Of a stretch of 64,000 nt of DNA, positions 4,490 to 63,489 are shown piece after piece. The DNA comes from Escherichia coli. GTDB taxonomy: Bacteria; Pseudomonadota; Gammaproteobacteria; Enterobacterales; Enterobacteriaceae. The position numbers were made by a program, and so were the translations under genes. A model generated the notes under the pieces. The model saw only the letters and a list, made by a program, of their open reading frames with translations, made no database searches and was not told the DNA's origin. The stretch's first letter is position 1, and each line of letters opens with the position of its first letter. The stretch lies in NCBI RefSeq assembly GCF_044324875.1, contig NZ_CP172185.1; one strand, 5' to 3'.

Positions 4490-5094
4490 TCACTGATGCC
4501 GTTTGCGCAGGTTCTCAATCACCGTCGTTAAATCCAGCCCCTGATCCTGCAACAGCACCAGCAGGTGATACATCAAGTCAGATGCCTCGTTGGTCAGCTC
4601 AAAGCGGTCATGTACCGTTGCTGCCAGCGCAGTTTCCACCCCTTCTTCGCCCACTTTCTGCGCGATGCGTTTGGTGCCGCTGGCATACAGTTTGGCTGTG
4701 TAAGAGGTTTCCGGGTCGGCAGATTTACGTTCGGCGAGCAGTTGTTCCAGTTGATACAGGAACAGCCACTGGTGAGCGGTGTTGCCGAAGCAACTGCTGG
4801 TGCCTTTGTGGCAGGTCGGGCCGATGGGATTCGCCAGCACTAATAAAGTGTCGTTGTCGCAGTCCGACGCAATACTCACTACGTTGAGGAAATTACCCGA
4901 CGTTTCGCCTTTGGTCCACAGTCGCTGTTTAGTGCGCGAGAAGAAGGTAACTTTGCCACTTTCGATGGTTTTGTCCAGAGCTTCCGGGTTCATGTAGCCC
5001 AGCATTAACACTTCACCGGATACCGCGTGTTGCACAATCACCGGCATCAGTCCGTCGGTTTTTTCCCAGTCCAGTTCGCGACGTAGTTGTTCTG

Positions 5095-11523: not shown

Positions 11524-11571
11524 TTTCTTATTCCTCTTTAAACCTGTCTGAACCGTTATCAACCGCGCAAT

Positions 11572-11606
11572 AAAAAAGCCCCCGGAAGGTGATCTTCCGG
11601 GGGCTT
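11572..11606 (-). terminator. his attenuator terminator
   Basis: Minus strand reads gaaagcccccggaagatcaccttccgggggctttttt; a perfect GC hairpin plus T-run between hisL and hisG. Confidence 0.85.
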
Positions 11607-11668
11607 TCTCATGCGTTCATGCACCACTGGAAGATCTGAATGTCTTCCAGCACACATCGCCTGAAAGA

Positions 11669-11719
11669 CTAGTCAGGATGATGGTGATGATGGTGGTGTT
11701 TAAATTGAACGCGTGTCAT
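11669..11719 (-). CDS. hisL: his operon leader peptide
   Basis: Minus-strand ORF ATG ACA CGC GTT CAA TTT AAA CAC CAC CAT CAT CAC CAT CAT CCT GAC TAG = MTRVQFKHHHHHHHPD, with seven consecutive His codons. Confidence 0.95.
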   Translation of the reverse strand: MTRVQFKHHHHHHHPD

Positions 11720-14386: not shown

Positions 14387-14652
14387 AGAAAAATTATTAT
14401 GACAAGCCTCTCATTCTCTTGTCATTTCCCCCCCATTTAGGCACAATGCGCCGCTGTCAAAAAATGACTAAAAACCGACGTTTCATCAGCGTCGGTTATT
14501 TTTTGCTTCAAACCAATCATTCATACCAAGAGGCCGGGCTTCGTACCGGATAGATATTTACTAAAAATCGACAGTTGTTGTCGCTGAGGAATCCAAAAAA
14601 ATGGGGCAATTTTTTGCTTACGCGACGGTTATCACCGTAAAGGAGAATGACC

Positions 14653-19161: not shown

Positions 19162-20334
19162 TTGCTGTTGAAACGCCGTCTTATTATTGCTGCTTCTTTG
19201 TTCGTTTTTAACTTATCGTCTGGTTTTGCGGCGGAAAACATTCCTTTTTCACCTCAGCCTCCTGAGATTCATGCCGGCTCCTGGGTATTGATGGATTACA
19301 CCACCGGTCAGATCCTCACCGCGGGTAATGAGCATCAACAGCGCAATCCCGCCAGCCTGACAAAGCTGATGACGGGCTATGTCGTGGATCGTGCTATCGA
19401 TAGTCATCGCATTACGCCAGACGATATTGTCACCGTGGGGCGTGATGCGTGGGCGAAAGATAATCCGGTGTTTGTCGGTTCTTCACTGATGTTTTTGAAA
19501 GAGGGCGATCGCGTATCGGTACGTGATTTAAGCCGTGGTTTAATTGTGGATTCCGGAAATGACGCTTGTGTTGCACTGGCTGACTATATTGCCGGTGGGC
19601 AACGGCAGTTTGTTGAAATGATGAACAACTATGCCGAGAAGCTGCATCTCAAGGATACGCATTTTGAAACAGTGCATGGTCTGGATGCACCAGGCCAGCA
19701 TAGCTCGGCTTATGATTTAGCTGTGCTTTCTCGCGCTATCATCCACGGCGAGCCCGAGTTTTATCATATGTACAGTGAGAAAAGTCTCACCTGGAACGGT
19801 ATCACCCAGCAAAACCGTAACGGGTTATTGTGGGATAAAACCATGAATGTTGACGGCCTGAAAACGGGTCATACTTCTGGTGCCGGGTTTAATCTCATTG
19901 CTTCGGCTGTCGATGGGCAGCGTCGTCTCATTGCAGTGGTAATGGGAGCTGACAGTGCAAAAGGTCGTGAGGAAGAGGCAAGAAAATTACTGCGTTGGGG
20001 GCAACAAAACTTTACTACGGTGCAAATTTTGCACCGTGGGAAAAAGGTCGGTACGGAACGCATCTGGTATGGCGATAAAGAAAATATCGCCCTGGGAACG
20101 GAACAAGAGTTCTGGATGGTGCTACCGAAAGCCGAAATTCCACATATCAAAGCCAAATATACCCTTGATGGTAAAGAGCTCACCGCGCCAATTAGCGCCC
20201 ATCAGCGGGTAGGGGAAATTGAACTTTACGACCGTGATAAACAGGTGGCGCACTGGCCGCTGGTTACCCTGGAATCTGTCGGGGAAGGCAGCATGTTTTC
20301 TCGCCTGAGTGATTATTTCCACCATAAGGCCTGA
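19162..20334 (+). CDS. dacD: D-alanyl-D-alanine carboxypeptidase (PBP6b)
   Basis: ORF with signal peptide and SxxK motif (ASLTKLM); the track start is a TTG, so the true start may be 19168. Confidence 0.88.
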   Translation: MLLKRRLIIAASLFVFNLSSGFAAENIPFSPQPPEIHAGSWVLMDYTTGQILTAGNEHQQRNPASLTKLMTGYVVDRAIDSHRITPDDIVTVGRDAWAKDNPVFVGSSLMFLKEGDRVSVRDLSRGLIVDSGNDACVALADYIAGGQRQFVEMMNNYAEKLHLKDTHFETVHGLDAPGQHSSAYDLAVLSRAIIHGEPEFYHMYSEKSLTWNGITQQNRNGLLWDKTMNVDGLKTGHTSGAGFNLIASAVDGQRRLIAVVMGADSAKGREEEARKLLRWGQQNFTTVQILHRGKKVGTERIWYGDKENIALGTEQEFWMVLPKAEIPHIKAKYTLDGKELTAPISAHQRVGEIELYDRDKQVAHWPLVTLESVGEGSMFSRLSDYFHHKA

Positions 20335-20420
20335 CCTTTCTTTTGCAGCAGACTGGCAGGAGTGCGAGTCTGCTCGCATAATCAACACTCATTCCTTGTG
20401 GTTTTAATATTGCAACCACA

Positions 20421-20436
20421 CTGTATATAAAAACAG
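20421..20436 (+). promoter_or_regulatory. LexA (SOS) box upstream of sbmC
   Basis: ctgtatataaaaacag fits CTGT-N8-ACAG, about 17 bp upstream of the sbmC start. Confidence 0.75.
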
Positions 20437-20452
20437 TAATAATGGAGGCGTC

Positions 20453-20926
20453 ATGAACTACGAGATTAAGCAGGAAGATAAACGTACCGTTGCAGGTTTC
20501 CATCTCGTTGGCCCGTGGGAACAGACGGTAAAGAAAGGTTTTGAGCAGTTGATGATGTGGGTAGATAGCAAAAATATTGTGCCGAAGGAGTGGGTTGCTG
20601 TCTATTACGACAATCCGGATGAAACACCCGCCGAAAAATTACGCTGCGACACCGTCGTGACGGTACCGAATAACTTTACGCTCCCCGAAAACAGTGAGGG
20701 CGTCATTCTGACAGAAATTTCAGGTGGTCAATATGCGGTGGCGGTGGCTCGTGTAGTCGGTGATGATTTTGCTAAACCCTGGTATCAGTTCTTTAATAGC
20801 CTCTTGCAGGACAGTGCTTATGAAATGTTACCAAAGCCCTGCTTCGAGGTTTACTTGAACAATGGCGCGGAAGAGGGGTACTGGGATATCGAAATGTATG
20901 TTGCGGTGCAGCCAAAACATCACTAA
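20453..20926 (+). CDS. sbmC: DNA gyrase inhibitor SbmC/GyrI
   Basis: 157-aa [27 protein letters not shown]... Confidence 0.9.
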
Positions 20927-21123
20927 TTCATCTCAGGGCGGTGTGTTGACGCGAAGACCTCTCTTTTTTTGAAAGCGAAAAGAGTAAGATGCGCCTTTCA
21001 ATTTTTTCGCTCCTGCCGGGAAATTACACTGTTCCCGGTTTGTCCGTCGGATAATTCAGAGGCGCGCCTTCTGGCCGACAGATGAGTTATGAGCGCTTTT
21101 AATCTTCATTACGGAGTTTCTGC

Positions 21124-22783: not shown

Positions 22784-23227
22784 TTAGCGACAGACATCTT
22801 CTGTATGCAGCAAGGCAAAAAGTTCTGTAACTCCATTGTTATTAACCGCACTGGTTACTAACACGTTGTGCGCTCCAGCTTCCCGTAACCAACATTTCAC
22901 CAAAGATATTTGTTCCATGCTGGCTAAATCTGCTTTGGTTACTACTCCAATGACCGGGCGATTCATTGACGAGGTAAAGCCTGGCGAAAAAGGGGACCAC
23001 GGTGCGTCCGCATTAAGCATCAGGGCGATAATGTCCGCTTCGCAGGCGCTGACCAACAATGCTCTGTAGAGGCTGCGGTTTTCGAGGTATTCGCCTGGTG
23101 TATCAATGGTGGTCGGGGACCAGACGATTGCCTGCGTTTTCTGATAATGAATATTTTCGCCACGCAGACATTGCGTGAGCGACGTTTTTCCGCACTGGCT
23201 GGGGCCGATGAGCATCATACGTTGCAT
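22784..23227 (-). CDS. pduV: EutP/PduV-family small GTPase
   Basis: 147-aa ORF with P-loop [10 protein letters not shown]; last gene of the pdu cluster. Confidence 0.85.
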
Positions 23228-23231
23228 AACG

Positions 23232-23582
23232 TCAGGTCCGCGTAATGGGGCAGGCGGTAAAGCGCATCATTTCACCCAGCGTACGGGTAACCTGGCTAAG
23301 TGCATATTCAATCGCAGAAACATCACCAGTCAGCACTACGGCACCGGTAAAACGATCAAGAAAACCGATCTCTACAGCGCCTGATTTTGTGGCGATATCA
23401 CATGCGATGATAGATGCTTCGCTGGGGGTAATTGTCAGAATGCCAATAGCAGAAACGGTGTCTGGTAAACCCAATTTCTTAAACAGATCCTTCCCTGGAT
23501 TGGCGATGACATGTGCCAGCGTGACCTGCTTACCAGGGACATATTCCTGAATCATCCGTTCAGTTGTGTGCTGAGTTGTCAT
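23232..23582 (-). CDS. pduU: microcompartment shell protein (circularly permuted BMC domain)
   Basis: ORF ...[80 protein letters not shown]... Confidence 0.85.
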
Positions 23583-24136
23583 TATCCCTCCACCATCTGA
23601 CGCCACATGGCTTCATGTGGACGGGCAATCACCGACCGATAGACCAACAAACCTTTTTCTCCCGCACGCTCGCTGGCGACAGAGACCGCGTTATTAACAT
23701 CTGAAATATCGCCAGCAACCACCATGTAGCATTTACCGCCAATGCCAAAAGCCATATGCACGCGAACAAGAATGACATTCGCAGCTTTGACAGCACAATC
23801 GGCAGCGTCAATGCAGGCGGCGACACTCCAGGTTTCGACTACGCCGACAGCCCGGTGCTGTTCAACTTGGTTCAGTCCGCTGATTGCAGAAAGGATGCTG
23901 GGATGAATATTCGGCAGGACAAGACTGTCGACCAGCATTTCACCAGCAAGGGAAGCACCGCTGTTGATGGCCTGTTGCACCGCGCCCACATCGCCACCGA
24001 GCATCAGCAGAAATTTTCCGGGGCATAGCGTTTTGCTGACCAGTAACTCAACGTTGGCGCTTTTCAGCATGGCGTCGCCGGTTTCCATCCCTTTCGCGAT
24101 ACTGCTAAGTTCTAAAATACCTACCGCTTTCGACAT
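23582..24136 (-). CDS. pduT: microcompartment shell protein with tandem BMC domains
   Basis: 184-aa [35 protein letters not shown]... with two BMC repeats. Confidence 0.85.
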
Positions 24137-24138
24137 CG

Positions 24139-25482
24139 TTAACCTCTCACAAGCGTAATCGCGTTTTCTGTCACATCGCTGACCATGCCATCAATACTGG
24201 CATGAATGGGGGCACCTAATGTGCCGTGTGGAATTTGACCTACACATTGCCCATGAACGACGCGATCGCCTTTTTGTACACACGCAATTGCGCTGGCACC
24301 GATGTGCTGGCGTAACAATAACGTCACTTTTTCGGTCTGAGGCACCTGTTCAGACAATGGCGCATCCTGATACCACGGGGTTAAGCCCAGTCTGGTTACC
24401 AGCCGTTTTACGGGAATCAGTCGATAATTTGCCATGGGATCTGCAGGATTTAAGGTACCTTCGTAACGGAGATTTTGTGCGCGTAATTCCTGCTTAAGCA
24501 GGCGGTTTATGCGCATTGGTGAAATTCCTACCGGACAGGCGACGCTGGCGCAGACGTTGCACTCCGAACAGGTGAGCGCCGTCAGTAACAGTTGTGGCGT
24601 AGCGAGCTGTTGGTAGTTAACCGCACGTACTAATAAATGGGGTGCCAGTTCGTGACCGATTAAATGACGTGGGCAGAGATCGGTACACAAGCGGCATTGC
24701 TCACAAACAGTTTTCGCGACGGCAAGTACGCTGCGGTCATTCTGCATTCGACATTGGATCAGTGAATGAGAGTTGGGTAAAACCAGCAAGCCGCCAGTGG
24801 TTTTGCTGACTGGTGTGTCGAGCGATGTGATCAAACTGCCCATCATCGGTCCGCCATTGATAAAACCAGGAGCATCCACTGTTGCGCCGCCCGCCAGCGC
24901 CAGGACTTCACGTAAAGACATGCCGATGGGGACGGTTACCGTTATTGGTTTCGCCACTGCACCATTAACGGTGAGTGTGCGGCGCGTCACTGGATACTGT
25001 TGCTCGACGGCTCTGGCAATATTAAGTACGGTTTGAACATTATTGACCACCACACCGACGCTAACGGGTAATGCAGCGGGTGGAACGCGGCGACCAGTTG
25101 CCATCCAGATGGTCAGCACTTCGTCTCCTGCGGGGTAAACATCGGGCAAAATATGCAGGCGGATATCCGGTGGTAACAGTGGTGTGAGTGCGTTTATTGC
25201 CAGTTGATATTTCTCTTTCAGCGCGATGATTCCGCTGCTGGCCCCGGTGGCTTTCATCGCATAGTGAACACCGCGAAGCAGGCGGCTGGCTTGCTGCGCC
25301 ATTAACTGTTGATCCACTTTCAACATGGGTTCGCATTCCGCCGCATTCACCAGGAAAGTGTCAACACGCGCTTGTAGCTTAATATGGGTTGGAAAACCTG
25401 CGCCGCCAGCACCCACGACACCAGCTGCCTGTACTCGCTCGCGGATGGTCTGGTCGTCGCAGGAGGTTAACTCGACGTTCAT
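24139..25482 (-). CDS. pduS: cobalamin reductase (RnfC-like flavoprotein with 4Fe-4S clusters)
   Basis: 447-aa ORF with a GAGGAGFP nucleotide motif and two CxxCxxCxxxCP ferredoxin motifs. Confidence 0.85.
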
Positions 25483-26591
25483 AACAACTCCTCGAGCAGT
25501 TCTGCAATAGCGGTGGCATCAGCCGCACGCGGGTTGGTACGCAACGTTGCATCCGCCAGTGCCGCCTGAACCATATCTGGTATGCGTATTGACCATTCTG
25601 CTTTTTTTTCTTTCAGCACATTGGTAAGAGTCGGTAGCTTACAGGTTGTTTTAAGCTGTTCAATATGTTGAATAAGTGTATTCAGGCTGGCGGTGTCATT
25701 GGCGTTGTCCGGGCATAAATGGCACGTTTTCGCCAGCCGGGCGTAGCGTTTGGCAGCGCGCGGATCGCCAGCATTAAAGCGGATAACCGCCGTGAGCAGG
25801 AGCGCATTCGCCAGGCCGTGTGGCAGATGAAACTGTCCGCCGAGTTGATGAGCAATTGCATGGTTTAATCCCAGTCCAGCCTGGCTAAAGGCCATTCCTG
25901 CAAGTGTCGATGCATTATGCATTTTGCCACGGGTAGCGAGACAATCGCCTTTCTTCACTGCAGTGGGCAGGTATTGAAAAACAATTTGCACGGCTTTTTC
26001 GACCAGTGCATCCGTGAAGTCGCTGGCGCGGGGAGAAACATAAGCTTCAAGCGCATGGGTTAAAACATCCATCCCGGTATTGGCCGTTATCGCCGGTGGC
26101 ACGCTGACGACCAAAGATGGATCAAGGATCGCGATATCCGGATAAAGTGCATTATCGAAAAGGGGATATTTAATCCCTTTCTCAGGATCGCTGATGACAC
26201 AAGCACTGGTCACTTCGGAACCGGTACCGCTGGTGGTGGGAATGGCTACGCAGGTTTCAATTTCAATGCCACACTGGCGACCGAACCAGACAATTGCTTT
26301 TGCGGCGTCCAGGGCAGAACCGCCGCCAAAACCGATAACTACATCCGGGCGTAAAGTCTGCATTTGCGCAATGCCTTTCACCACGGTCTGGATAGTTGGG
26401 TCGGGCGTTATTTCGCTAAAAATACTGAGACGATTACTGTCGGGCAGCGCCTGATGCAACGTGTCAATAAGTGGTGAGCGTGCCAGAAAGGCATCGCAAA
26501 TAATCCAGATGTGTCTATGAGAGAAACGGCTAAGTACCTTGAGACTTCCTGGTCCGCTGTATAAACGCGTCTGCAGTGAAAAAGTATTCAT
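25479..26591 (-). CDS. pduQ: iron-containing alcohol dehydrogenase (1-propanol dehydrogenase)
   Basis: 370-aa ORF with the Fe-ADH GGGS motif (GFGGGSALDAAKA). Confidence 0.85.
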   Translation of the reverse strand: MNTFSLQTRLYSGPGSLKVLSRFSHRHIWIICDAFLARSPLIDTLHQALPDSNRLSIFSEITPDPTIQTVVKGIAQMQTLRPDVVIGFGGGSALDAAKAIVWFGRQCGIEIETCVAIPTTSGTGSEVTSACVISDPEKGIKYPLFDNALYPDIAILDPSLVVSVPPAITANTGMDVLTHALEAYVSPRASDFTDALVEKAVQIVFQYLPTAVKKGDCLATRGKMHNASTLAGMAFSQAGLGLNHAIAHQLGGQFHLPHGLANALLLTAVIRFNAGDPRAAKRYARLAKTCHLCPDNANDTASLNTLIQHIEQLKTTCKLPTLTNVLKEKKAEWSIRIPDMVQAALADATLRTNPRAADATAIAELLEELL

Positions 26592-26601
26592 TTCCGTTTC
26601 T

Positions 26602-27987
26602 CTAGCGAATTGAAAAGCCGCTGGTTAACACGCAGCGTCGTGAGCGGGCAAAAGTCCGTGCTGACGTTGTCCCTTCTCCGGTCGGTGTTGCAATGGTAAA
26701 GGTCGTAAAGCCTTCGCCGCCGACGCCAATACCCGCCCAGGAGGGGCCGTTTTTGACAAAGATTGAGGTTTGCATAACGCGTGCGGCAAGGTTGAGCCGT
26801 GAGACGTTCTGCGAGTGCATAATTGCCGTGTGGTGCAAGCCGTCTTCCACTTTCAGCGCCAGGGTGAGAGCGCTATCAAAATCGTTGACCTTCACAATGG
26901 GCAGCATTGGCATCAGTTGTTCACAAGTAACCCAACTATCATTGGCGTCGACAACAGCAATCAGTAGGCGCGGCGCTTTTGCGGGCAAAGGGAGGCCTGC
27001 CGCTTCCAGCAAGGCTGATGGGCTTTTCCCAACCAGTTTTTTGTTGGCGCTACCGTCTGGCAGGCAAATTGCACGCAATTTCTCCGTTTGCTCATAGTTA
27101 AGAAGAAGCGCGCCAAAACTTTGCATCTGCTGAATTAAATAATCTGCCACTGATGCCACGACAATCAGGCTTTTTTCAGCAATACACGGCAGGTTGTAAT
27201 CAAATGAAGCGCCGTTGATGATGTCCTCGGCGGCTTTCACAATATCCGCCGTTTCATCGACGATGCACGGAGGGTTACCCGCTCCGGCACCAATCACTTT
27301 CTTGCCACTTTTCATTCCCATGGCGACGATCCCCGGACCGCCGGTAATCGCCAGAACGCTGATTTTAGGGTGCGCCATCATCTGTTCGGTAGCAGCAAAG
27401 GTCGGTTCAGATACGGTAACGATCAGGTTATGAATGCCACTACAACGAAACGCGATGTCTTCGATTGTGGTAATCAGTTTTAACGAAACGTATTTGGCTC
27501 CCGGGTGTGGACTGAAGTAGACGCTATTACCTGCTGCCAGCATGCTGATGCTGTTGTTAATGATGGTTTCCGTGGGGTTGGTGCTTGGCGTGACCGAGCC
27601 AATAACCCCAAACGGGGAGTATTCAAACAAAACCATGCCACCATCACCGGTTAGTGCAGTGGTGGTTAAATCTTCAATTCCTGGCGTGTTATCGAGTGCC
27701 GCTTTGTTTTTTAGGTACTTATCTTCTTTATTTCCCATCCCCGTTTCTTTGGCGCTTTCTTCTGCCAGTTCGGTCAGGCGGGGTATTAATTCTTCGCGAA
27801 TGGCGCTGATAATGGCGCTACGGGTTTTAAGCGGGCACTGTTGAAAGCGTAAAAAGGCCTGGTGTGCTGCGCAGACCGCTTCATCAACAGTCTGGAAAAT
27901 AGCGTTTCTTTGCGCTCGTTGCGTAGCGGGGGCAAGCTGCTCACGCAGAATATTGCGGATCAGTGTTTCTAATTCAGAGTTATTCAT
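26602..27987 (-). CDS. pduP: CoA-acylating propionaldehyde dehydrogenase
   Basis: 461-aa aldehyde dehydrogenase-family ORF with an N-terminal encapsulation-like helix; position in the pdu cluster. Confidence 0.85.
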   Translation of the reverse strand: MNNSELETLIRNILREQLAPATQRAQRNAIFQTVDEAVCAAHQAFLRFQQCPLKTRSAIISAIREELIPRLTELAEESAKETGMGNKEDKYLKNKAALDNTPGIEDLTTTALTGDGGMVLFEYSPFGVIGSVTPSTNPTETIINNSISMLAAGNSVYFSPHPGAKYVSLKLITTIEDIAFRCSGIHNLIVTVSEPTFAATEQMMAHPKISVLAITGGPGIVAMGMKSGKKVIGAGAGNPPCIVDETADIVKAAEDIINGASFDYNLPCIAEKSLIVVASVADYLIQQMQSFGALLLNYEQTEKLRAICLPDGSANKKLVGKSPSALLEAAGLPLPAKAPRLLIAVVDANDSWVTCEQLMPMLPIVKVNDFDSALTLALKVEDGLHHTAIMHSQNVSRLNLAARVMQTSIFVKNGPSWAGIGVGGEGFTTFTIATPTGEGTTSARTFARSRRCVLTSGFSIR

Positions 27988-28991
27988 TGGTTTACTCCCA
28001 CGTTAATTGCCGCCATTGCGCTTTGGGCAATATCCATGTCTTGTTCAACGCTACCACCGCTGATGCCAAGCCCCCCGAGCAATATTCCGTCACGCCAGAG
28101 GGGGAAGCCGCCACCAAAGGTGACGACTTTGCCTTGCATATGGCTTTCGAGCCCATAAAGCGGCGCGCCGGGTTGCACGGTATCAGCAAGCTTGTGGGTT
28201 GCTGTTTTCATCGCCACGGCGGTCCAGGCTTTTTTCGGTGCCAGTTCACTGCTGACCAACAGGGCATCAGGCATCCGCCAGGTAACACTTTCTGTTCCGT
28301 TGGCATCAACAATGCTGATGACAACGGGAATATGCAGTTCATCCGCGCGCATTGCCGCACTACGAATGAGCTGGTGAAGATCCTGAAATGTGAGCGGCAT
28401 TGTGCGTTCCTTCAATGCTGGTGTGTGGTTGGCTTCGTGATAACGTTTTGTGATTTCCTGAATCATCAGGTTTTGATGAGCAACGTTGTCTTCCACTCGG
28501 GCGAGGGCATACAGGCAATCGGAAAGTCGGTTGATATAGTGCAGCAAAACATTCCGGACGTTGGTTTCCGTTGTCAGTTCAACCAGACGTCTTTCAGCCC
28601 GTCGAGCCACTGTGCGGGCGAAATGCATGTGGCTTGCGGCTTCAGATCGACCAGGCAGAATGAAGCTGTGAACTGGGGGGACGGCGTTCATTGCGCTATC
28701 GATCGCGTTTTCCAGCGCAGCAATTTCTTCCGTACTGATGTAACGCTGCTTCGCTGACGGCTGTTCGCTTTCACTCGCGAGTTCGGCGCTAAACCAAAAT
28801 ATCTGTTGTTGAATGGCTTCCAGTAAGATGCGATGGCTTTCGATGGCGGTGGCGCAATAACACAGACTGAGTGTCGCGTTCAGTTCATCCAGCGTGCCAT
28901 AGGTTTCGACACGTAGATGAGTTTTGCTGACGCGCTGTCCGGTAAATAAAGACGTACTTCCTGAATCACCTGTTCGGGTATAAATTGCCAT
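27984..28991 (-). CDS. pduO: ATP:cob(I)alamin adenosyltransferase (PduO-type) with C-terminal DUF336 domain
   Basis: 335-aa ORF MAIYTRTGDSGSTSLFTGQRVSKTHLRVETYGTLDELNA... Confidence 0.88.
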   Translation of the reverse strand: MAIYTRTGDSGSTSLFTGQRVSKTHLRVETYGTLDELNATLSLCYCATAIESHRILLEAIQQQIFWFSAELASESEQPSAKQRYISTEEIAALENAIDSAMNAVPPVHSFILPGRSEAASHMHFARTVARRAERRLVELTTETNVRNVLLHYINRLSDCLYALARVEDNVAHQNLMIQEITKRYHEANHTPALKERTMPLTFQDLHQLIRSAAMRADELHIPVVISIVDANGTESVTWRMPDALLVSSELAPKKAWTAVAMKTATHKLADTVQPGAPLYGLESHMQGKVVTFGGGFPLWRDGILLGGLGISGGSVEQDMDIAQSAMAAINVGVNQ

Positions 28992-29002
28992 CTTTCAGCT
29001 CC

Positions 29003-29278
29003 TTAGCGCGAAAGCGTATCGACAATGCCGACCACTGCCAGGTCGATGGCCTCATTAGGGCCGGAAAACACATGTCTGGCGCTGGAACCACTGCTGAGGA
29101 GTACCAACTCACCAACGCCTGCGCCGACTGAATCAACGGCAACTTCGTCGCCGGTTAATGGCGTGAGAGGCAGTTCGCCGTCAGCACTGACCCGGCGAAC
29201 CAGCAGCAGTTTTTTCCCGATCAGAGATGGTGATTTTTGCGTGGATACTACCGCGCCAGTGACTCGAGCCAGATGCAT
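29003..29278 (-). CDS. pduN: microcompartment vertex (pentamer) protein, EutN/CcmL family
   Basis: 91-aa [33 protein letters not shown]... Confidence 0.85.
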
Positions 29279-29281
29279 AGG

Positions 29282-29773
29282 TTACTCCTGCCTGATTAAC
29301 TGAATATTTCGGGTAATTGCCGCTTCACGAGCCAGTGCGGTCACACAACATTTCCGCTGTAACACCAATATTCCCGAGCTTAACTGTGCGATATCGACAT
29401 AACTTAAAAGTCGATCATGATGTAGGTAGATCGGTTGCCCTTGTTCGTCGCACCAGCTTAGCGGTAGACGGGCGAGAGTCTTCAATTCAATGGCGTTCAG
29501 GAAATGACGCTGCAACGACAATTGAATGTGCATTCCCCAGGCTAACGCTTCGTGTATCTGGATTGCTGCTCGATCTGACGTTTCGTTCTCCGCAAGTTGT
29601 CGCAGCAGCGGCAGATCGACATATCGGATTTGTAATGACGCATACTGATGAACGCTCTCTTGAACACTGGCGTCTCGCAGTTGAAAAACAGTCAGCACGA
29701 GTGTTTTTCCCGCACGTTGTTTAAGGCGAAAAACCACTTCGTCAACAATACGTTGCATCAGTATGTTATTCAT
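29282..29773 (-). CDS. pduM: microcompartment structural protein PduM
   Basis: 163-aa ORF between pduL and pduN; assignment by operon order. Confidence 0.7.
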   Translation of the reverse strand: MNNILMQRIVDEVVFRLKQRAGKTLVLTVFQLRDASVQESVHQYASLQIRYVDLPLLRQLAENETSDRAAIQIHEALAWGMHIQLSLQRHFLNAIELKTLARLPLSWCDEQGQPIYLHHDRLLSYVDIAQLSSGILVLQRKCCVTALAREAAITRNIQLIRQE

Positions 29774-30402
29774 GGCATTGACACCAGTGTGGCAAAAACG
29801 TCAGGGCTATCAGCCCCTGCGGCGTTGGCCTCATCGGTATCAATATGCATTTCAAGACGCATATCCGGAGAGACGCGAACAGCGACGTTTTCGAATATCA
29901 GTCGTCGCTCATCACCTTCAATGGCAACCGCCACTTTATCGCCATGCGTAACGCCATAAATCAGGGCATCCAGCGGAGACATATGAATATGCCGTTGCGC
30001 GACAATGACGCCAGATGTGATCTCCAGTTCCGCAAATGGACTTATCAAACGAATCCCCGGAGTGCCGCTGAGATCGCCTGACATGCGTAGCGGGGCGGTG
30101 ATCCCTAACGTTCTGGCGTCCGTCCGGGAAATTTCCACCTGACTTGCATTGCGTAGCGGCCCCAACAAGCGAACGTTGTGCAATTTACCTTTTGGTCCCT
30201 CCAGCGTAACAACCTGTTCAGCAGCGAATTGGCCAGGTTGCATTAACGGCTTTTTCTCGCTAATCGGTTGTTCAGGAAAAAGACGCAAATAATCCGCTGT
30301 TGAAAGATGAATATGACGACTGGAAACACCCAGAGGGATAGGGCGCTCACGCATCTCATCCAGAATCTGGCTCACTGTTTCCTGCAAGGTTTGTTTATCC
30401 AC
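29770..30402 (-). CDS. pduL: phosphate propanoyltransferase
   Basis: 210-aa ORF MDKQTLQETVSQILDEMRERPIPLGVSSRHIHLSTADYLRLF... Confidence 0.85.
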   Translation of the reverse strand: MDKQTLQETVSQILDEMRERPIPLGVSSRHIHLSTADYLRLFPEQPISEKKPLMQPGQFAAEQVVTLEGPKGKLHNVRLLGPLRNASQVEISRTDARTLGITAPLRMSGDLSGTPGIRLISPFAELEITSGVIVAQRHIHMSPLDALIYGVTHGDKVAVAIEGDERRLIFENVAVRVSPDMRLEMHIDTDEANAAGADSPDVFATLVSMP

Positions 30403-30404
30403 TG

Positions 30405-30827
30405 CTACTCCCCTCGCTTATTGGTGTGCAGGCAAAGTGAGCGGGGCTCACCTTTTTGCCGCTGACATGCCGGGTCAAGACACAAATTACAACTGATAAT
30501 CTCTGAGGTGACGGTTGTTGCTGGTGTTTCGCTTGTTTCAACCGTCCCAGTCAATGCTTCAGTTGTGTGGGGCAGAATGCCGTCTCCCGGGCGGGCAATT
30601 ACTTTGTGTGCGACAAGGCCATTTCGCTGTCCGGCGAAACTGGCTCCCGTCGCGATCGCCGCATTAACCGAGGCGACGTCACCGGTGATTTTGATGAGCG
30701 TCCAGCCTGAGCCATTGGTCTTCTCAAGGCCAACCAGCATGATAGACGCGGCTTTTGCCATAGCGTCTGCGCAACTGATAGCGAGTGCCAGACCACTGAC
30801 TTCAAGTAATCCCAGTGATTGCTTCAC
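30405..30827 (-). CDS. pduK: microcompartment shell protein with C-terminal Cys-rich extension
   Basis: 140-aa ORF; N-terminal BMC domain MKQSLGLLEVSGLALAISCADAMAKAASI... and a C-terminal tail with CxxC-type cysteines. Confidence 0.8.
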   Translation of the reverse strand: MKQSLGLLEVSGLALAISCADAMAKAASIMLVGLEKTNGSGWTLIKITGDVASVNAAIATGASFAGQRNGLVAHKVIARPGDGILPHTTEALTGTVETSETPATTVTSEIISCNLCLDPACQRQKGEPRSLCLHTNKRGE

Positions 30828-30850
30828 GCTGTGCTCCTTAGCGAATGGGG

Positions 30851-31126
30851 TTATGCCGATTTAGGTAAAATAGCCTCAACATCACTGTGTGGGCGTGGGA
30901 TGACATGGCAGGATTTAACTTCGCCAACGGCGCTTGCCGCAGCGCTCCCCGCATCAACGGCGGCCTTTACTGCGCCAACATCACCGCGGACCATCACCGT
31001 AATCAGACCCGAACCAATCTTTTCATAGCCAACCAGCTGCACGTTGGCGGATTTAACCATGGCATCTGCAGCTTCAATTGCGCCAACTAACCCTTTTGTT
31101 TCAACCAGTCCTAGTGCGTTGTTCAT
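30851..31126 (-). CDS. pduJ: major microcompartment shell protein (BMC-H)
   Basis: 91-aa [59 protein letters not shown]... Confidence 0.88.
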
Positions 31127-31145
31127 ACTGCGTTTCTCCTGTGGA

Positions 31146-31496
31146 TTATGAGTGGAATTCCCGGAAGGGAATTCCTTTTACCAGGCGGGCAGCGTTAGTG
31201 CCGATGCTGCGCCGGGCATGGTTATCTTGTTGATACATCAGCGTAAACAGTGGCGCTGATGCTGGTAAGTTTTTGTAATGCACAATCAGTTTTTCCTGAT
31301 CGCAGGCAATGCCAACCAACAGGGGAGATTGACGAGCAGCCAGCCAGGCGCTATCGATAACTTCACCTGACGGAATGTGTTGAATGCGAAAGGGAATACC
31401 TTCCTCTTCAATGCCAAGAAGCACCTCATCCCATGTAGTGATACAGTCACCGATCTCCATGACGACGATGGCTGGTGCACGCTCTTTACCTTCCAT
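31146..31496 (-). CDS. pduH: diol dehydratase reactivase small subunit
   Basis: 116-aa ORF immediately downstream of pduG; operon order. Confidence 0.8.
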
Positions 31497-33318
31497 GAAT
31501 CGACTCCTTGTGCCAGGCGATGAGGAGCCCAGTAGCTACCGCATTGCGCGGACCTTCGCTACCACGGATATTCCCCCGCCCGGCGACCAGTCGATAATGT
31601 GCCAGCGCGTCGGTGACCAATTGCGGTACTTCGAAATCCAGCGAAGAGCCACCCACCAGAACGACAAACGGAATGTCGCGAATATTTCCGGCAGGGCTTA
31701 CCTGACGTAGCGCGCGCAGGGAATTAGTTACGAAGACACGCTCTTTCGCACTGCGACGGACAGCGCGTACTTTTTCCAGCGTCAAATCACCGGGAATAGG
31801 CACCAGTTCGTCGGGTTTCACTACACAGACGCGGGCAAATACATGGGGGGATAGGGGAGTAGGGAAGAACTGAACGCTGCCATCTTCATGGCGTAAGTGG
31901 AACAGGCTTTCTACTTTTGCCAACGGGTACTTTTTGATTTCTTCTGCCAGATAACGATCATTTAAGCCCAGCTCACGAGCGATAATCATCGTTACCATGT
32001 CGCCCGCTCCCGCAAGGTGAGTGGCAACAATTTCTCCTTTCTGATTGATGATGGAGGCATCGGTAGAGCCTGCACCTAAGTCCAGAATTGCCAGTGGACG
32101 TGTGGTTCCAGGGGTAGTCAAGGCCCCCTGAATGGCGGCTTCTGCTTCTGCGCCTCCGACCTGAACATCAACATGCAGTTTTTGCTTAATTTCACTGGCG
32201 ATCATTGCCATTTGCAGACGGTCGGATTTCACCATAGAGGCAATACCCACAGCCTGTTCCAGTGAAAATTCACCTGCCAGGCCGCCGGTTACGCTGACGG
32301 GGACAGAGGTATCTATCGCCAGCAAATCCTGAATAAAAATTTCGTTGCTGGGTTTGTTGGTCAGTTCCGCCATGGTCTGGCGAACATGTTCCAGCATTCC
32401 GCCGATGTTGGTGCCTGGTTCTCCCGTCACGTTTTCCAGTTTTGGGCACTCACCGACCGCTTTCATAATGGCATCGGCACCAGCAGCTACATCAACGCGC
32501 GTTGTGCGCCCGGCAGAAAGCAGTTCGATATTTCCGGCGGGTATCGAACGGGCTTTAACGTCGCCAGAAGGCGTTTTCACTACCACTGCTGAACGGTTGC
32601 CGATTAGCGCCCGCGCGACAGGAACAATATTTTTAGTCTCTTCAGCATTGAGGGCGAAAACGGTGGCAATCCCATACGGGTTAGACAGGGTTTCGATAAC
32701 TTTCCCGGGAACGGCAACTTCAATTGCAGCCAGCATGCCGAGCGGAATACGATCGATGTAGAGGACTTCATCAACAATAGGTACAGCAATTTCCAGGCGG
32801 TTACTGACCAGCACGCCATCGTCGCGTTGCAGAATAACGCCAGTCAGCTGATATCCGGCACGTACGGAGGCGTTTATCATCGTCGCGATATCGGCAAAAT
32901 CAAATGCCGATGACACCACCAGGATGTAAGGTGTGTCCGCCGGGCGTGTTAATAACTCTTGCGGAGTGATGGTGAGCCCTACGCCCAGCCCCACTCCGCC
33001 CGGAGTTTTCGGGTTGTGACCGATCATGGTTGATTCGGTGATGATGGTTTCAGTGATGGTTTCCATCGCCACATCACCAATGACCGGAGTTGCTTCGTTG
33101 ATACGAATAAGCGAAATATCGCTAACATTGATGCCGACTTTTTTCGTTGCCTGTGCGAGCGCCTCCTGAATACCATGGACGTTACGCAACGTACCTTTAA
33201 TTCCGGTGGTTTCCGCCAGGGCGCTACTCACGAACGACAACTCTCCAGTTGCACTGAGCGTTGCCAGCGCAATCTCTGTTGATGAGTTGCCGATATCAAT
33301 GCCTGCTATATATCGCAT
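31486..33318 (-). CDS. pduG: diol dehydratase reactivase large subunit
   Basis: 610-aa ORF MRYIAGIDIGNSSTEIALATL... (ASKHA/actin-like ATPase fold). Confidence 0.85.
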   Translation of the reverse strand: MRYIAGIDIGNSSTEIALATLSATGELSFVSSALAETTGIKGTLRNVHGIQEALAQATKKVGINVSDISLIRINEATPVIGDVAMETITETIITESTMIGHNPKTPGGVGLGVGLTITPQELLTRPADTPYILVVSSAFDFADIATMINASVRAGYQLTGVILQRDDGVLVSNRLEIAVPIVDEVLYIDRIPLGMLAAIEVAVPGKVIETLSNPYGIATVFALNAEETKNIVPVARALIGNRSAVVVKTPSGDVKARSIPAGNIELLSAGRTTRVDVAAGADAIMKAVGECPKLENVTGEPGTNIGGMLEHVRQTMAELTNKPSNEIFIQDLLAIDTSVPVSVTGGLAGEFSLEQAVGIASMVKSDRLQMAMIASEIKQKLHVDVQVGGAEAEAAIQGALTTPGTTRPLAILDLGAGSTDASIINQKGEIVATHLAGAGDMVTMIIARELGLNDRYLAEEIKKYPLAKVESLFHLRHEDGSVQFFPTPLSPHVFARVCVVKPDELVPIPGDLTLEKVRAVRRSAKERVFVTNSLRALRQVSPAGNIRDIPFVVLVGGSSLDFEVPQLVTDALAHYRLVAGRGNIRGSEGPRNAVATGLLIAWHKESIHGR

Positions 33319-33327
33319 AGTTCGTCC

Positions 33328-33846
33328 TTAATCGTCGCCTTTCAGTTTTTTGCGCTCGACATAAAGCTCCGCAGCTTCACGGACAAATGCAGCACAAATT
33401 TTGGCCTGATAACGCCGTTCAAGATCGTCAGCAATGGCAATAAGTTCTTGCTTAGTCGAACGATAAGGGCGTAACGCATTGTAGATTTCGAGGATGCGAT
33501 CATCCGGTACTGAGGTAAGCTCAGCGGCGCGTTCAAAATTCATCGCCAGGCGATCGCGACCAGCATCTCTGGCAATCGCGGCCTGAATACGCAATGTTTC
33601 AGGGGTTATACGCATATCCTGGGCGGTGACGTTATCGCTGAGTACATTTTCCAGAGTGAAATCGTCGAGCGTTTTATTGGTCGCCGTTTTAACCCATTCC
33701 GGATGTTTATTTGCCAGCGGATAATCCGTCACTTTGGCGCTCTGTATTGATGCGTTGGGGACCGCAGAAACAGAAGCTGCATCCTGTAAACTGTTCATGC
33801 GGTTCAACACGTCCCTGACCATCGACTCAATTGCATCGGTATTCAT
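33328..33846 (-). CDS. pduE: propanediol dehydratase small (gamma) subunit
   Basis: 172-aa ORF following pduD; operon order. Confidence 0.85.
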   Translation of the reverse strand: MNTDAIESMVRDVLNRMNSLQDAASVSAVPNASIQSAKVTDYPLANKHPEWVKTATNKTLDDFTLENVLSDNVTAQDMRITPETLRIQAAIARDAGRDRLAMNFERAAELTSVPDDRILEIYNALRPYRSTKQELIAIADDLERRYQAKICAAFVREAAELYVERKKLKGDD

Positions 33847-33860
33847 GAAGATTTCCTTTG

Positions 33861-34529
33861 TTAAAACGTCACGCGCAGTTCTTGCGGTTTTTTGCCAGTG
33901 ACCACGTACTTCGTCTCTTTGATATGCAAAATGGCAGATTTAGCCTGGTATTTCGGCCGCGCCATTTGATCGTTGAGGGTCGGCACCGGTTGTGGAGACT
34001 CACGCTTTGCATAACGCGCGGCGTTTTTGCCAATCTGACGATAAGTTTCCAGCGTCAACAAAGGCGCTTGAGGGAATAGTTCCAGGTTAGACAAGGGAGG
34101 AAGACCCTGCTGGTGGATAACCGTTGTGCCTTTCGACTGAATACCGATAGCAATACCTGAACCACTAAGACGATCGCCTTCGACTGCTACGAATGCGACA
34201 TCGGACGATTTAAAGCAGCGAATCACACGGGCTTTAATGCCTTCTTCTTCGATACCAGCAATCACTTCGCGCAAGATGTTTTTATGCGGAATACCGATGA
34301 TATTGACGGTTTGCGCCAGGCCGAACGCCGGGCCTACAGCAATAATGACTTCATCTTGCTGAGTGCCTTGTTGGGCTTCGCCAATTTCGGTCAGAAAAGT
34401 TCCGGTATCTGGCGCGGAAGAGACAGTTGCACAGGCAGGTGCGCGAAATGAAACGGGCTTGTCGCTGGTTTGCATTTCTGCCAGCACGTCTTCGATAATC
34501 TGACGCAGTAATTTTTCGTTAATTTCCAT
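33861..34529 (-). CDS. pduD: propanediol dehydratase medium (beta) subunit
   Basis: 222-aa [22 protein letters not shown]... with an N-terminal encapsulation helix. Confidence 0.85.
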
Positions 34530-34538
34530 TTCTCACCC

Positions 34539-36203
34539 TTAGTCAATTTCGTTGGGATCAAGTGCACCGGGAATATTTTTGATCTCTTCCCAGCGTTCCC
34601 CTTGCAGGCGGTAACCTGTAGCCGGTCCGGCGTAATCATTGATGTCATTGACCGCTGAGAGCACTTGTCCGTCATCGACGATGATGGCTGAGGTATGGAG
34701 ATAATCGCCGGTCAGTTTTGCTTTTTGCATGTTGAGCATGTCCTGGGCGACATCGGTAAAACCGCCTTGCGCCAGGGCTTTCACCACTTCCAGGCTGTTA
34801 CGGTTTTTATTGATAATCTCCTGGGCGAACTTGATGTCTTCCACAATATTGCGCTCAGGCATATCTTTCGAACCGTGGGCATAGGTTGCCGCTTCGACTT
34901 CTTCATCGGTAATAGGCGGTAGTCCCATACCGGCAAAGACAGCCTGTAAAGCGCGAGCGGCTTTATTGCGGATAGCGATAACATCTTCTTCGCGTACTGG
35001 TCGCAGCCCGCCATCAACCTTCAGGTCACGCTGAATGACGTTGTAATCATCGAAGTCTTCAGCATCTTCGTTTGAACCAGCAAACATGTTGTCGTAGTTC
35101 GGCACAGCGGAAAAACCGGAAGAGATAAAGTCGGTACCTGGCAGAAACTGCATCAGGAAACGTGCGGTACGGCGCATATCCGAGTGGGTAAAGGTCTGGT
35201 CATTACTGGAAGCGCATTCCAGATCCAGCGATGAGCAAATTAAGTTTTCCGCTAATACTGCGCGGATGCCTGATGGCACAGCCGATGGGACACCGATGCA
35301 GCTTACCGAACCATTCTGCAGACCCTGAACGCCTGCGGCTTTAGTGATGTAAATGCAACGAGCCTCGAGATAAAGCATTGATTTGCCTTCCGCGTAACCC
35401 ATCTGTACTTCTGAGCCGGAGCCGGAAGTAAAGCGCATTTTTAAGCCGCGAGAAGCATAAGATGACGCGAGAAACCCTTTTGACCACGGGGTATCATCGC
35501 CATCGGTGAAAACAGGTTCTGTACCATAGACAGAAATTGTTTCGGCGTAACAGGTGTGGCCTAACATACCGAGTTTCAGTTCGGTGGCTTCTTCCAGTGA
35601 ACACTGGGTCAAGACGCCCGGACGTCCCACCTGTGAGCCGACCAGCAGGGCGATGGCGTTGAACGGTGCATAGCGAGCAACGGCAACGGTGGTTTCCTGT
35701 TCATCAAACCCGCGCCATGCGCCTTCAGCTGCGTCGGCGGCAATTTGTACCGGGTTATCTTTAACGTTGGTGACGTGAGCCTGTTGTGATGGTGTTCGAC
35801 GGGCGCGCATTTTCTGCATCGCCATCATCATCTCTACCACGTTCATCTGCGAAACCACTTCGACGATTTTTGCAGGCGTCATTGCTGTGGTAAGGGGAAC
35901 GATATCGCTACGTTTGACATTTGGATCGCACAACATATTGGCAAGTTTTACCGAATCCATCGCGATGACTTCTTCGGCGCGAGCGAGATTGATGCCGTAG
36001 CGGGCGATAAAGTGGTCGATCAGGTCAAACTGGCTGGCGGGTTTTCCATCCAGTTCGGTAACGACGCCGTTAACAATTTTGATTGACGGTTTAGGATCGT
36101 TCGGGCTTTCCATCGCAATGAAGCCTTCTTCAATCCACTCTTTAACGAAACCGTCCTGGTTGACCGGGCGTTTTGCCAGTGCTTCAAATCTTTTCGATCT
36201 CAT
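34539..36203 (-). CDS. pduC: B12-dependent propanediol dehydratase large (alpha) subunit
   Basis: 554-aa ORF MRSKRFEALAKRPVNQDGFVKEWIEEGFIAMESPNDPKPSIKIVNG... Confidence 0.9.
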   Translation of the reverse strand: MRSKRFEALAKRPVNQDGFVKEWIEEGFIAMESPNDPKPSIKIVNGVVTELDGKPASQFDLIDHFIARYGINLARAEEVIAMDSVKLANMLCDPNVKRSDIVPLTTAMTPAKIVEVVSQMNVVEMMMAMQKMRARRTPSQQAHVTNVKDNPVQIAADAAEGAWRGFDEQETTVAVARYAPFNAIALLVGSQVGRPGVLTQCSLEEATELKLGMLGHTCYAETISVYGTEPVFTDGDDTPWSKGFLASSYASRGLKMRFTSGSGSEVQMGYAEGKSMLYLEARCIYITKAAGVQGLQNGSVSCIGVPSAVPSGIRAVLAENLICSSLDLECASSNDQTFTHSDMRRTARFLMQFLPGTDFISSGFSAVPNYDNMFAGSNEDAEDFDDYNVIQRDLKVDGGLRPVREEDVIAIRNKAARALQAVFAGMGLPPITDEEVEAATYAHGSKDMPERNIVEDIKFAQEIINKNRNSLEVVKALAQGGFTDVAQDMLNMQKAKLTGDYLHTSAIIVDDGQVLSAVNDINDYAGPATGYRLQGERWEEIKNIPGALDPNEID

Positions 36204-36221
36204 AAATCTGCCTCAGAAAAT

Positions 36222-37034
36222 TCAGATGTAGGAAGGGCGATCGTTTTTCGGTGTATCGCCGAGAGTCGAAAGCACGGTTTTACCGATTTCGCGTGCGGAG
36301 ATGACCGCCTGGCGGACTGCGCCGGAGTCACCCGAGATAATCAGAATGACTTCATTGCTGTAGCTGGTGCCTTGCGCGGGGGAGCTGTATGCCACAACAT
36401 CCACATTGGCGGACTTCAGCGCGGTGTCTGCCATCAGAACACCCACCGCAGCCGGAGCGCCGACAATAACGCCGCAAGCCCGTCCCAGTGGAGCGCCAAA
36501 CGCTTTTTCCAGTGCATAGCTGGCGCGGGCGGTATATTGCAGTTCAAGATGTCCGGCTTCGTTGGCATAGACATCGCCAAAGGTTCGATCGAGTTCTTTC
36601 AGGGCAACTTCAATACCGCGTTTCACGTCGGAAACATCGTTGCCACCTAAGAGGATCAATGAGCCGTGTCCGGCACCGCCTTTAGTATCGCGAGGAAGTT
36701 CAATGCTAATAACTTCAGTATTGGTTGCTTTTACCGCTTCATCAGCGGCCATAATGTGTGGACCTGCGCCAATACGCGCACCCAGAATGCCAATGGAACG
36801 ATAGCGTTTTTCAAGTTTCATTGCGTCCAACAGGGCGCTATCAACGTTCGCAATGACCAGACCTACAGTGTCGCCAATAGCGGTGCCAACAAATTCTGTT
36901 AACGTGCAGCTTTTTTCTGCCATAGCCGTCTCTCGTATTTGATGAGTGGTTTTCGGGAGAACCTCATGCTCTGGCGTCGCTACGCGAGCGATGACCTGCG
37001 CCATGATCTGTTCGACCAGTTCATTGCTGCTCAT
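36222..37034 (-). CDS. pduB: microcompartment shell protein (tandem BMC, BMC-T)
   Basis: 270-aa ORF upstream of pduC; tandem BMC domains. Confidence 0.85.
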
Positions 37035-37315
37035 GGGTTAATTCCCTTTGGTAAGATTTTTTCGACATCGGTATGTGGGCGGGGAATAACGTGCACGGCT
37101 TTTACTTCGCCGACGTTACGCGCAGCTGCGGCACCTGCGTCTGTTGCCGCTTTTACCGCCCCGACATCACCACGAACGATGACGGTCACCAGCCCGGAAC
37201 CTATTTTTTCGTAGCCGACCAGCAAAACATTTGCCGACTTCACCATGGCGTCTGCGGCCTCTATGGCGGCAGTTAAGCCTTTGGTTTCTACCATTCCTAA
37301 CGCTTCTTGTTGCAT
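37031..37315 (-). CDS. pduA: microcompartment shell protein (BMC-H), first gene of the pdu operon
   Basis: 94-aa [60 protein letters not shown]... Confidence 0.9.
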
Positions 37316-37826
37316 AAAGACCTCGCCTGGATTTTTTTGACGATATGACTATAAAAAAAAGCGAGGAAAAAGAATGGCTGACTTAATCGGCTAATGAGAA
37401 AAATTAATAGAGAACAAATATTATAAAATTGCTTTTATGAACTATATGTTGTTAATTTATTAGTTGTTTTGTGGATATTTCAATGTGAATTAATTGCGTT
37501 GGCTAGTGAGTTTAATCGCGAGTAATATTTTGTGGGGGGGTGTTCGAGGAAGGAACTGTGATATTTGTTTCAATTTTATTATGTCATGATGGCAATTTTT
37601 TATTATAAAAGTTTGGCGGTAATTATTACTTTCAACACTGATTAACGCTGTGTTGCATGATTCGGTAATGACAATAATTTGTTATGTTAGCACGATTTTT
37701 ACACGAGTCTGTCATGCATGTTAGCAATATTTTCTGCAGAGCAATTTTTTATAGTTGCGCTCGATATATACAACAATCAGCGCATAGTTGGCTGATAAAG
37801 AAAAACTCCGTAAAGAAGGTGTCACT
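37316..37826. promoter_or_regulatory. divergent pduA / pduF control region
   Basis: A 510-bp AT-rich intergenic region between divergent pduA and pduF. Expected from Salmonella knowledge to carry PocR-dependent promoters; individual sites not resolved here. Confidence 0.5.
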
Positions 37827-38636: not shown

Positions 38637-38838
38637 CGAAATAATCTGGCAGCTATAAACGTTTATTTTTTTACTGTTTGTGATCTGCTTTCCGAACTTA
38701 TTAAAAAGTCTCCCGCTTCACGGAGGCTTTTGTTATTGTCCTTTGTGCTTCTCGTCAGTAAATCATCAGGGATGATGTGAAGATTAAATGTAAAACAATT
38801 GTTTTGCTATAACAATAAATTAACTGGGAGGTTTTATC

Positions 38839-39753: not shown

Positions 39754-39869
39754 AGTAAATGCCAAAAAAAAGGAAGGTTTAAATAAACGCTGGAATGAAT
39801 AATTAACGTTATTTACGTGTTATGGGAAAAGTGAAATCAGCTCATAACATACGCTGACAGGTGTGGCAC

Positions 39870-40080
39870 ATTTGTGCCAGGGAAGAGGGTGAAAATCCCT
39901 CGCAGCCCCCGCTGCTGTAATGCTGACAAACCCGAAAATGCCACTGATCGCGAGATTGGGAAGGTCGGGTGAGGATGACGCTAAGCCAGAAGACCAGTCT
40001 GTCAGTCAATACCAACAACTTCGGTGGGAAGTGGGTTGCCCGGAAGCGTCCGGTAGAGTACTGGCGCGTCTTTATACCCC
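39870..40080 (+). promoter_or_regulatory. cobalamin (B12) riboswitch; boundaries approximate
   Basis: Contains the conserved riboswitch blocks ggtgaaaatccc, cgcagcccccgctgctgtaa, gccactg, gggaaggtcgg and the B12-box-like aagccagaagaccag. Confidence 0.65.
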
Positions 40081-44234: not shown

Positions 44235-44310
44235 TGGCTCCTCTGACTGGACTCGAACCAGTGACATACGGATTAACAGTCCGCCGTTCTACCGACTGAA
44301 CTACAGAGGA
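44235..44310 (-). tRNA. asnV: tRNA-Asn (GUU)
   Basis: 76-nt reverse complement of tcctctgtagttcagtcggtagaacggcggactGTTaatccgtatgtcactggttcgagtccagtcagaggagcca. Confidence 0.95.

Positions 44311-54873: not shown

Positions 54874-63489
<8,616 letters not shown>

Follow-up and report, generated by a model that had tools for sequence, protein, structure and literature searches.

The LexA operator of the sbmC (gyrI) promoter in an Escherichia coli chromosome, a known SOS box next to a CRP-S site and present as a rare allele

The stretch of Escherichia coli DNA analyzed here, 64,000 nucleotides in length and referred to as the window throughout, carries sbcB, dacD, sbmC, yeeA and tmaR as neighboring genes and represents the chromosomal his-sbcB-sbmC-cob region of this species. 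A segment of 801 nt around the site under study matched 5,418 of 5,426 complete E. coli genomes, in which RefSeq names dacD and sbmC at this position, and the window is therefore a piece of E. coli chromosome. From dacD to sbmC, the following features were located, with coordinates counted from the first letter of the window:

19162-20334, + strand: dacD, the upstream neighbor of sbmC (NCBIfam DacD equivalog, 849 bits; RefSeq)
20344-20378, + strand: stem-loop AGCAGACT / AGTCTGCT right after the dacD stop codon, overlapping the CRP-S site (folding)
20360-20381, no strand assigned: CRP-S type CRP site GAGTGCGAGTCTGCTCGCATAA, with its core TGCGA-N6-TCGCA at 20363-20378
20396-20401, + strand: TTGTGG as putative -35 element, separated from the putative -10 by 15 nt
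20417-20422, + strand: putative -10 hexamer CACACT, overlapping the left edge of the LexA box
20419-20438, + strand: full 20-mer SOS box CACTGTATATAAAAACAGTA (consensus match, heterology index, comparison with K-12)
20421-20436, no strand assigned: LexA operator core CTGT-N8-ACAG (direct read; unique pattern in the window)
20444-20448, + strand: Shine-Dalgarno sequence GGAGG of sbmC (direct read)
20453-20926, + strand: sbmC (gyrI), DNA gyrase inhibitor, 157 aa (NCBIfam, K-12 identity, PDB, RefSeq)

The sbmC product was recognized by the NCBIfam equivalog NF007451 with 301 bits (cutoff 179) and coverage of residues 1-157 of 157, matched PDB entry 1JYH with E=5e-106, and is 97% identical to K-12 SbmC, from which it differs at 5 of 157 residues. 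Its Shine-Dalgarno sequence GGAGG is kept at the same spot in most orthologues, with variants in Atlantibacter and Pseudocitrobacter. On the downstream side of the gene, E. coli ET826 matched the 801-nt query over only 91 nt (window 20910-21000, the sbmC-yeeA spacer; 93.5%), and the gene annotated at this match in ET826 is named 'Arm DNA-binding domain-containing protein'. In some strains, the spacer may thus lie next to an integrase-associated insertion or rearrangement.

Upstream of sbmC, the + strand reads ctgtatataaaaacag at 20421-20436, precisely where the first-pass annotation had placed an SOS box. Read directly, CTGTATATAAAAACAG is a 16-bp LexA operator core of the form CTGT-N8-ACAG with an AT-rich spacer, and its surroundings in the window read ttgcaaccaCACTGTATATAAAAACAGTAataatGGAGGcgtcATG. 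The sbmC ATG begins 14 nt past the end of the 20-mer CACTGTATATAAAAACAGTA, and the gene that follows is full-length, so that the placement of the box in front of sbmC was right. A pattern search returned a single match to CTGT-N8-ACAG in the whole 64-kb window, the one at 20421-20436. This loose pattern alone is not significant, with 0.69 matches expected per window and at least one match in 53 of 100 shuffles. The full 20-mer CACTGTATATAAAAACAGTA, in turn, carries three mismatches at most to the consensus TACTGTATATATATACAGTA, and an equally good match was found in 0 of 100 shuffles.

We scored the site by the Berg-von Hippel heterology index (HI), with a matrix derived from the LexA boxes listed in Table 4 of PMC3009722. 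The HI was 1.4 when all 18 sites were used for training, 1.6 when sbmC was left out, and 1.8 when both sbmC and the identical umuD box were left out (16 sites); with the latter set, CACTGTATATAAAAACAGTA scored better than 14 of the 16 E. coli LexA boxes used for training. The working limit for LexA sites in the literature is an HI below about 15 (PMC11002266). Within the 64 kb, CACTGTATATAAAAACAGTA is the best LexA-like site by a wide margin, followed by the 20-mer TTCTGCATAGCTATCCAGTT on the - strand at 1375-1394, inside the ugd coding sequence, with an HI of 9.3-10.3. When the window was resampled 300 times with a first-order Markov model, the best site per resample had a mean HI of 10.5 (sd 1.4, minimum 4.7), and 1.83 was never reached. 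Scoring by position-weight matrix, the check suggested by the first-pass annotation, thus gave a strong match and not the low score named there as refuting, and the description of the element as a near-consensus LexA operator is upheld by an HI of 1.4-1.8 that no other site in the window approached and that the null never reached. The runner-up was rejected as a second LexA box because its HI is at chance level and it lies within ugd. Separately, a repeated 20-mer, GGCTGTATGAACACCCAAAA (variant GACTGTATGAACACCCAAAA at 58918), gave HI values of 12-14 in the gene of a YeeJ-like adhesin, where these hits are repeat artefacts.

The sbmC SOS box is already known, has been since 1995, and figures in every E. 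coli LexA regulon list. Reviews place sbmC in the LexA regulon; the original description is reportedly that of Baquero et al. 1995, and Courcelle et al. 2001 are said to have given its box an HI of 2.8. One study (PMC11228462) counts K-12 sbmC among the classical SOS genes and gives an HI of 2.8, a 5.7-fold increase of expression under AZT and a 9.5-fold decrease in lexA3(Ind-). The first-pass annotation had named a lexA(Ind-) background as one in which its reading might be refuted, and this loss of expression argues against a refutation. The gene is also induced by ciprofloxacin, as followed in a time course (PMC11002266), and by UV (PMC3009722; PMC5999292, with a reporter). In Salmonella, nalidixic acid raises expression of the orthologue 3.55-fold, and the box there is located 21 nt from the ATG (PMC8072944). 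Induction of GyrI in the SOS response and in stationary phase, together with a protective role, has been described (PMC10886550), and the sbmC motif has been printed as TACTGTATATAAAAACAGTA, identical to the umuD motif (PMC3009722). DNA-damage-inducible expression, as proposed earlier for this locus, is therefore established in the literature for the K-12 allele, whose box differs from that of the window only at position 1.

Conservation of the element was surveyed with one genome per species, which yielded 39 sbmC loci, 38 of them enterobacterial. In 35 of these 38 enterobacterial species genomes, the sbmC ATG is preceded at 14-22 nt by a LexA-like 20-mer (HI 0.9-9.7). The exceptions are Intestinirhabdus, with a box about 186 nt upstream, Klebsiella michiganensis, in which the region is replaced, and Escherichia sp. 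MOD1-EC7003, which has lost the LexA box by deletion (CATACTGATTGGAGG) and carries a truncated gene. The SbmC match of MOD1-EC7003 stops at residue 82 (locus L038:1430-1500), and promoter and gene alike appear degraded in this lineage. When 36 distinct sequences were aligned on the box, the information content averaged 1.75 bits per column in the half-sites as compared to 0.53 and 0.57 in the flanks, a difference somewhat inflated in favor of the box by anchoring on the best LexA-like 20-mer. CTG and CAG are kept across genera, while the flanks drift; in Enterobacter, Lelliottia and Klebsiella, the left arm is degenerate (AGTG or ATGT) and doubles as a good -10 hexamer. Within E. coli, the 16-bp core is identical in ten out of ten aligned sequences (the window, eight other complete genomes and SCPM-O-B-8794), and the divergent strain E69 has CCAG as the right arm.

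The left edge of the box coincides with a candidate -10 element. At the position equivalent to 20417-20422, K-12 and most E. coli have TATACT preceded by C (CTATACT), which we take to resemble a sigma-S-type -10. One of TATACT, TATAGT or TACACT occupies this site in Escherichia, Citrobacter, Salmonella, Kluyvera, Enterobacter and Lelliottia, and -10-like hexamers abut or overlap the LexA left arm in all genera compared. A TTGnnn motif is likewise kept across genera at the putative -35, with a spacer of 18 nt in Kluyvera and Lelliottia. A simple sigma-70 scan called no promoter overlapping the LexA box and passed over the putative -35 TTGTGG; its sole + strand match in the 1 kb scanned was CTGGCA-18-CATAAT at 20353-20382, about 35 nt upstream of the box. 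For sbmC, previous work did not predict the use of sigma-70, observed biphasic kinetics and suspected an alternative sigma factor (PMC5999292). The silence of our scan at the box and these kinetics together indicate that LexA is not the sole regulator of sbmC.

A second regulatory site, not mentioned in the first-pass annotation, lies upstream. GAGTGCGAGTCTGCTCGCATAA is a 22-bp CRP site in which both half-sites are of the CRP-S type, with C at position 6 and G at position 17, in line with the published motif definition (TGCGA core, C6/G17; PMC1635313). Its core shows one to three mismatches to TGTGA-N6-TCACA in the loci of Escherichia, Citrobacter, Salmonella, Kluyvera, Enterobacter and Lelliottia, and the sequence block preceding the LexA box does not vary among Escherichia species and is largely kept in the other five genera. 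In K-12, induction of sbmC requires CRP, cAMP and Sxy, and Sxy raises expression 6-fold (Cameron and Redfield, PMC1635313); the authors state that the sbmC promoter works by a class I mechanism. From the CRP-S center, it is 46.5 nt downstream to the hexamer at 20417-20422 and 48.5 nt to the LexA 20-mer. Were this hexamer the -10, the CRP-S center would fall at about -58.5 to -61.5, and transcription would begin within the LexA box, which is also where the class I distance places the start; no published sbmC transcription start was found in the literature searched. The overlap of operator and likely promoter put forward in the first-pass annotation is probable, as both the -10-like hexamers at the left arm and the published class I position of the CRP-S site point to it.

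The stem-loop right after dacD has a minimum free energy of -23.4 kcal/mol (z = -2.67). Its left arm is kept in neither Salmonella nor Kluyvera, so that the conservation here is one of sequence and not of structure. A role of this hairpin as terminator was rejected, as it has no T-run, was not called as a terminator and has an unconserved left arm; it is better explained by its overlap with the CRP-S site. A search of the dacD-sbmC spacer for structured RNAs or sRNAs gave no Rfam match even at E<=1. Also rejected was a sigma-54 reading of CTGGCAGGAGTGCG (20353-20366), in which the GG-to-GC spacing is 3 nt short of the sigma-54 consensus TGGCAC-N5-TTGC.

Overall, we are highly confident that the motif is the LexA operator of the sbmC/gyrI promoter, at which occlusion by LexA would be relieved by RecA-stimulated cleavage, on top of activation through the CRP-S site and Sxy. 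In the undamaged cell, a LexA dimer would occupy the CTGT-N8-ACAG palindrome, which probably covers both the -10 hexamer and the sbmC transcription start, and the bound repressor would thereby block RNA polymerase. Upon DNA damage, RecA on single-stranded DNA would trigger self-cleavage of LexA, the vacated operator would permit transcription of sbmC, and SbmC would bind gyrase and thus protect against gyrase poisons and agents that damage DNA. Activation of this promoter comes from cAMP-CRP together with Sxy at the CRP-S site (20363-20378), which probably adds to the stationary-phase induction of sbmC. With a LexA box and a CRP-S site in one promoter, sbmC therefore integrates repressor and activator inputs. 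The sequence of the site, its score, uniqueness, position and conservation, and the identity of the gene are shown by the present analysis, and the dependence on LexA cleavage, CRP and Sxy is known from published work on the K-12 allele. The exact -10 hexamer, the transcription start and the mode of occlusion are parts of this model that we infer. What doubt is left concerns the exact start site and the behavior of the rare allele carried by the window, not the identity of the element: the site is real and highly significant, the earlier reading of it was correct, and it is a functional-looking and ordinary SOS box.

Other readings of the motif fare less well. A chance AT-rich palindrome, or a plain promoter element without any LexA role, would fit the chance expectation of the bare CTGT-N8-ACAG pattern given above and the resemblance of the box spacer to AT-rich -10 regions. 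Yet, the score of the full 20-mer was never reached in shuffles or resamples, CTG and CAG persist across genera in drifting flanks, and lexA3 dependence has been published for the near-identical K-12 site (PMC11228462); we consider this reading effectively refuted. Alternatively, transcription could start from the conserved CATAAT at 20377-20382, leaving the LexA box as a downstream roadblock at about +30 to +50. CATAAT is part of the only + strand scan match and is kept, as CATAAT or ACATAAT, across most genera. However, CATAAT overlaps the right half of the CRP-S site and the adjoining flank, which accounts for its conservation, and the scan match scores 9/12, with 1.0 such match expected by chance in the 1 kb scanned. 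Moreover, under the class I mechanism (PMC1635313), transcription would begin some 60 nt past the CRP center, inside the LexA box, and an extended -10, TGTTAGATT, directly abuts the box in Klebsiella-type promoters. A roadblock of this kind is very improbable.

If the motif is, as we hold, a functional LexA operator, the promoter of this particular strain may still be altered. The window carries CCACACTGT where most E. coli have CTATACTGT, with exactly two T>C differences that lie in or beside the putative -10, one at box position 1 and the other two bases upstream of it. The full 81-nt promoter occurs identically in 2 of the 5,426 complete genomes, namely O158:H23 CFIAFB20140388 and NY1601. 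The two changes turn the putative -10 from TATACT into CACACT, and the C at box position 1 raises the HI by about 0.9-1.1 relative to K-12. With TATACT as the -10, the change to CACACT would remove the conserved T at -12 and could thereby alter promoter strength; CCACACT might then weaken the -10 and, slightly, the binding of LexA, resulting in expression and induction unlike those of K-12. We regard this as unlikely. The -10 assignment is itself putative, and with an HI of 1.8, the site remains one of the strongest boxes; dinB and cho likewise have C at box position 1 (PMC3009722). Both single-step intermediates occur in other strains, CCATACT in 203740 and JCC-EE 7 and CTACACT in O157:H7 LSU61. 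TACACT is the usual hexamer in Salmonella and several Citrobacter, which shows that the third base is under weak constraint, and with the intermediates and the CATGCT hexamer of E. coli E69 added, these positions look weakly constrained. The C-for-T allele of the window would be expected to behave like that of K-12. That the double T>C allele retunes basal and SOS-induced SbmC, and hence tolerance to gyrase poisons, is a speculative and rather improbable extension; if true, the change in tolerance would cover microcin B17, CcdB and quinolones.

Compared with known systems, the closest counterpart is the K-12 sbmC box TACTGTATATAAAAACAGTA, which shares with the window the locus, the gene, the 16-bp core, the 14-nt distance to the ATG, the CRP-S site and the Shine-Dalgarno sequence. 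It differs in box position 1 (C in the window, T in K-12), in the base two positions upstream (C versus T) and in the two bases after the box (AT in the window, TC in K-12). The umuDC box is the same 20-mer as the K-12 sbmC box, which leaves the window box one base off both, but it belongs to a different gene, and we know of no CRP-S site there. Colicin E1 (cea) promoters are plasmid-borne and carry tandem overlapping LexA boxes, whereas at sbmC a single box is combined with a non-canonical, Sxy-requiring CRP site of the TGCGA type. LexA repression is combined with cAMP-CRP activation at cea (PMC5999292) and with CRP-S/Sxy at sbmC. The CRP-S promoters of ppdD and yrfD (PMC1635313) resemble that of sbmC in the TGCGA core with C6/G17, the class I spacing and the dependence on CRP, cAMP and Sxy reported for sbmC itself; unlike them, sbmC is not a DNA-uptake gene and carries a LexA operator in addition.

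The locus can serve as a positive control, in that a true regulatory site was placed correctly by a reading from sequence alone. The locus further presents a dual LexA and CRP-S/Sxy promoter that is kept across Enterobacteriaceae with varying geometry. As SbmC modulates susceptibility to gyrase toxins and drugs, natural promoter variants could be of modest phenotypic interest, among them the rare allele of the window and the box-splitting IS insertions of other strains.

One such insertion is that of ISEc53 (ISL3 family; ends GGGTCTTCCCC / GGGGAAGACCC), which sits in the middle of the sbmC LexA box at the equivalent of window 20425-20432 in E. coli 25POL (L042:3040-3070 and 4925-4960) and TK3888 (L041). 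It is accompanied by an 8-bp duplication, ATATAAAA, splits the LexA operator and parts sbmC from its promoter. The element carries a gene of the ClbS/DfsB family upstream of its transposase, and its exact left junction was found in 81 of the 5,426 complete genomes.

Variation of a different kind was observed in a group comprising Klebsiella, Pseudocitrobacter and Pluralibacter (loci L020, L026-L030, L032, L033 and L035), which has a canonical CRP site, TGTGA-N6-GCACA, 60-100 nt upstream of sbmC. In this group, the CRP site is 13-14 bp closer to the LexA-like box, at 35.5-37.5 nt as compared to 48.5-52.5 nt. In K. oxytoca, the extended -10 abutting the box would place CRP at about -41.5. Judged by these sequences, the promoter of the Klebsiella group seems to have switched from a class I CRP-S to a class II CRP-N arrangement, with LexA control kept.

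Elsewhere in the window, matches at the Rfam gathering score and four tRNA genes were recorded:

11570-11693, - strand: His operon leader
14432-14506, + strand: sRNA STnc240
38695-38778, - strand: sRNA STnc230
39842-40016, + strand: cobalamin riboswitch
44238-44310, 46646-46718, 48467-48539 and 63805-63877: four tRNA genes (Rfam, identical scores)

Three corresponding tRNA genes are annotated as tRNA-Asn in a related O158:H23 strain. Between tmaR and cobU, at 22784-39753, lies a complete pdu (propanediol-utilisation) operon with pduF and pocR, in which PduC, PduG, a PduP-like protein and PocR were confirmed by NCBIfam; an O158:H23 strain sharing the sbmC promoter has only an EutP/PduV pseudogene remnant at the pdu position. 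Finally, the - strand at 54874-63564 encodes the YeeJ-like adhesin mentioned above, a 2,896-aa inverse autotransporter of the intimin/invasin type with many repeated domains.
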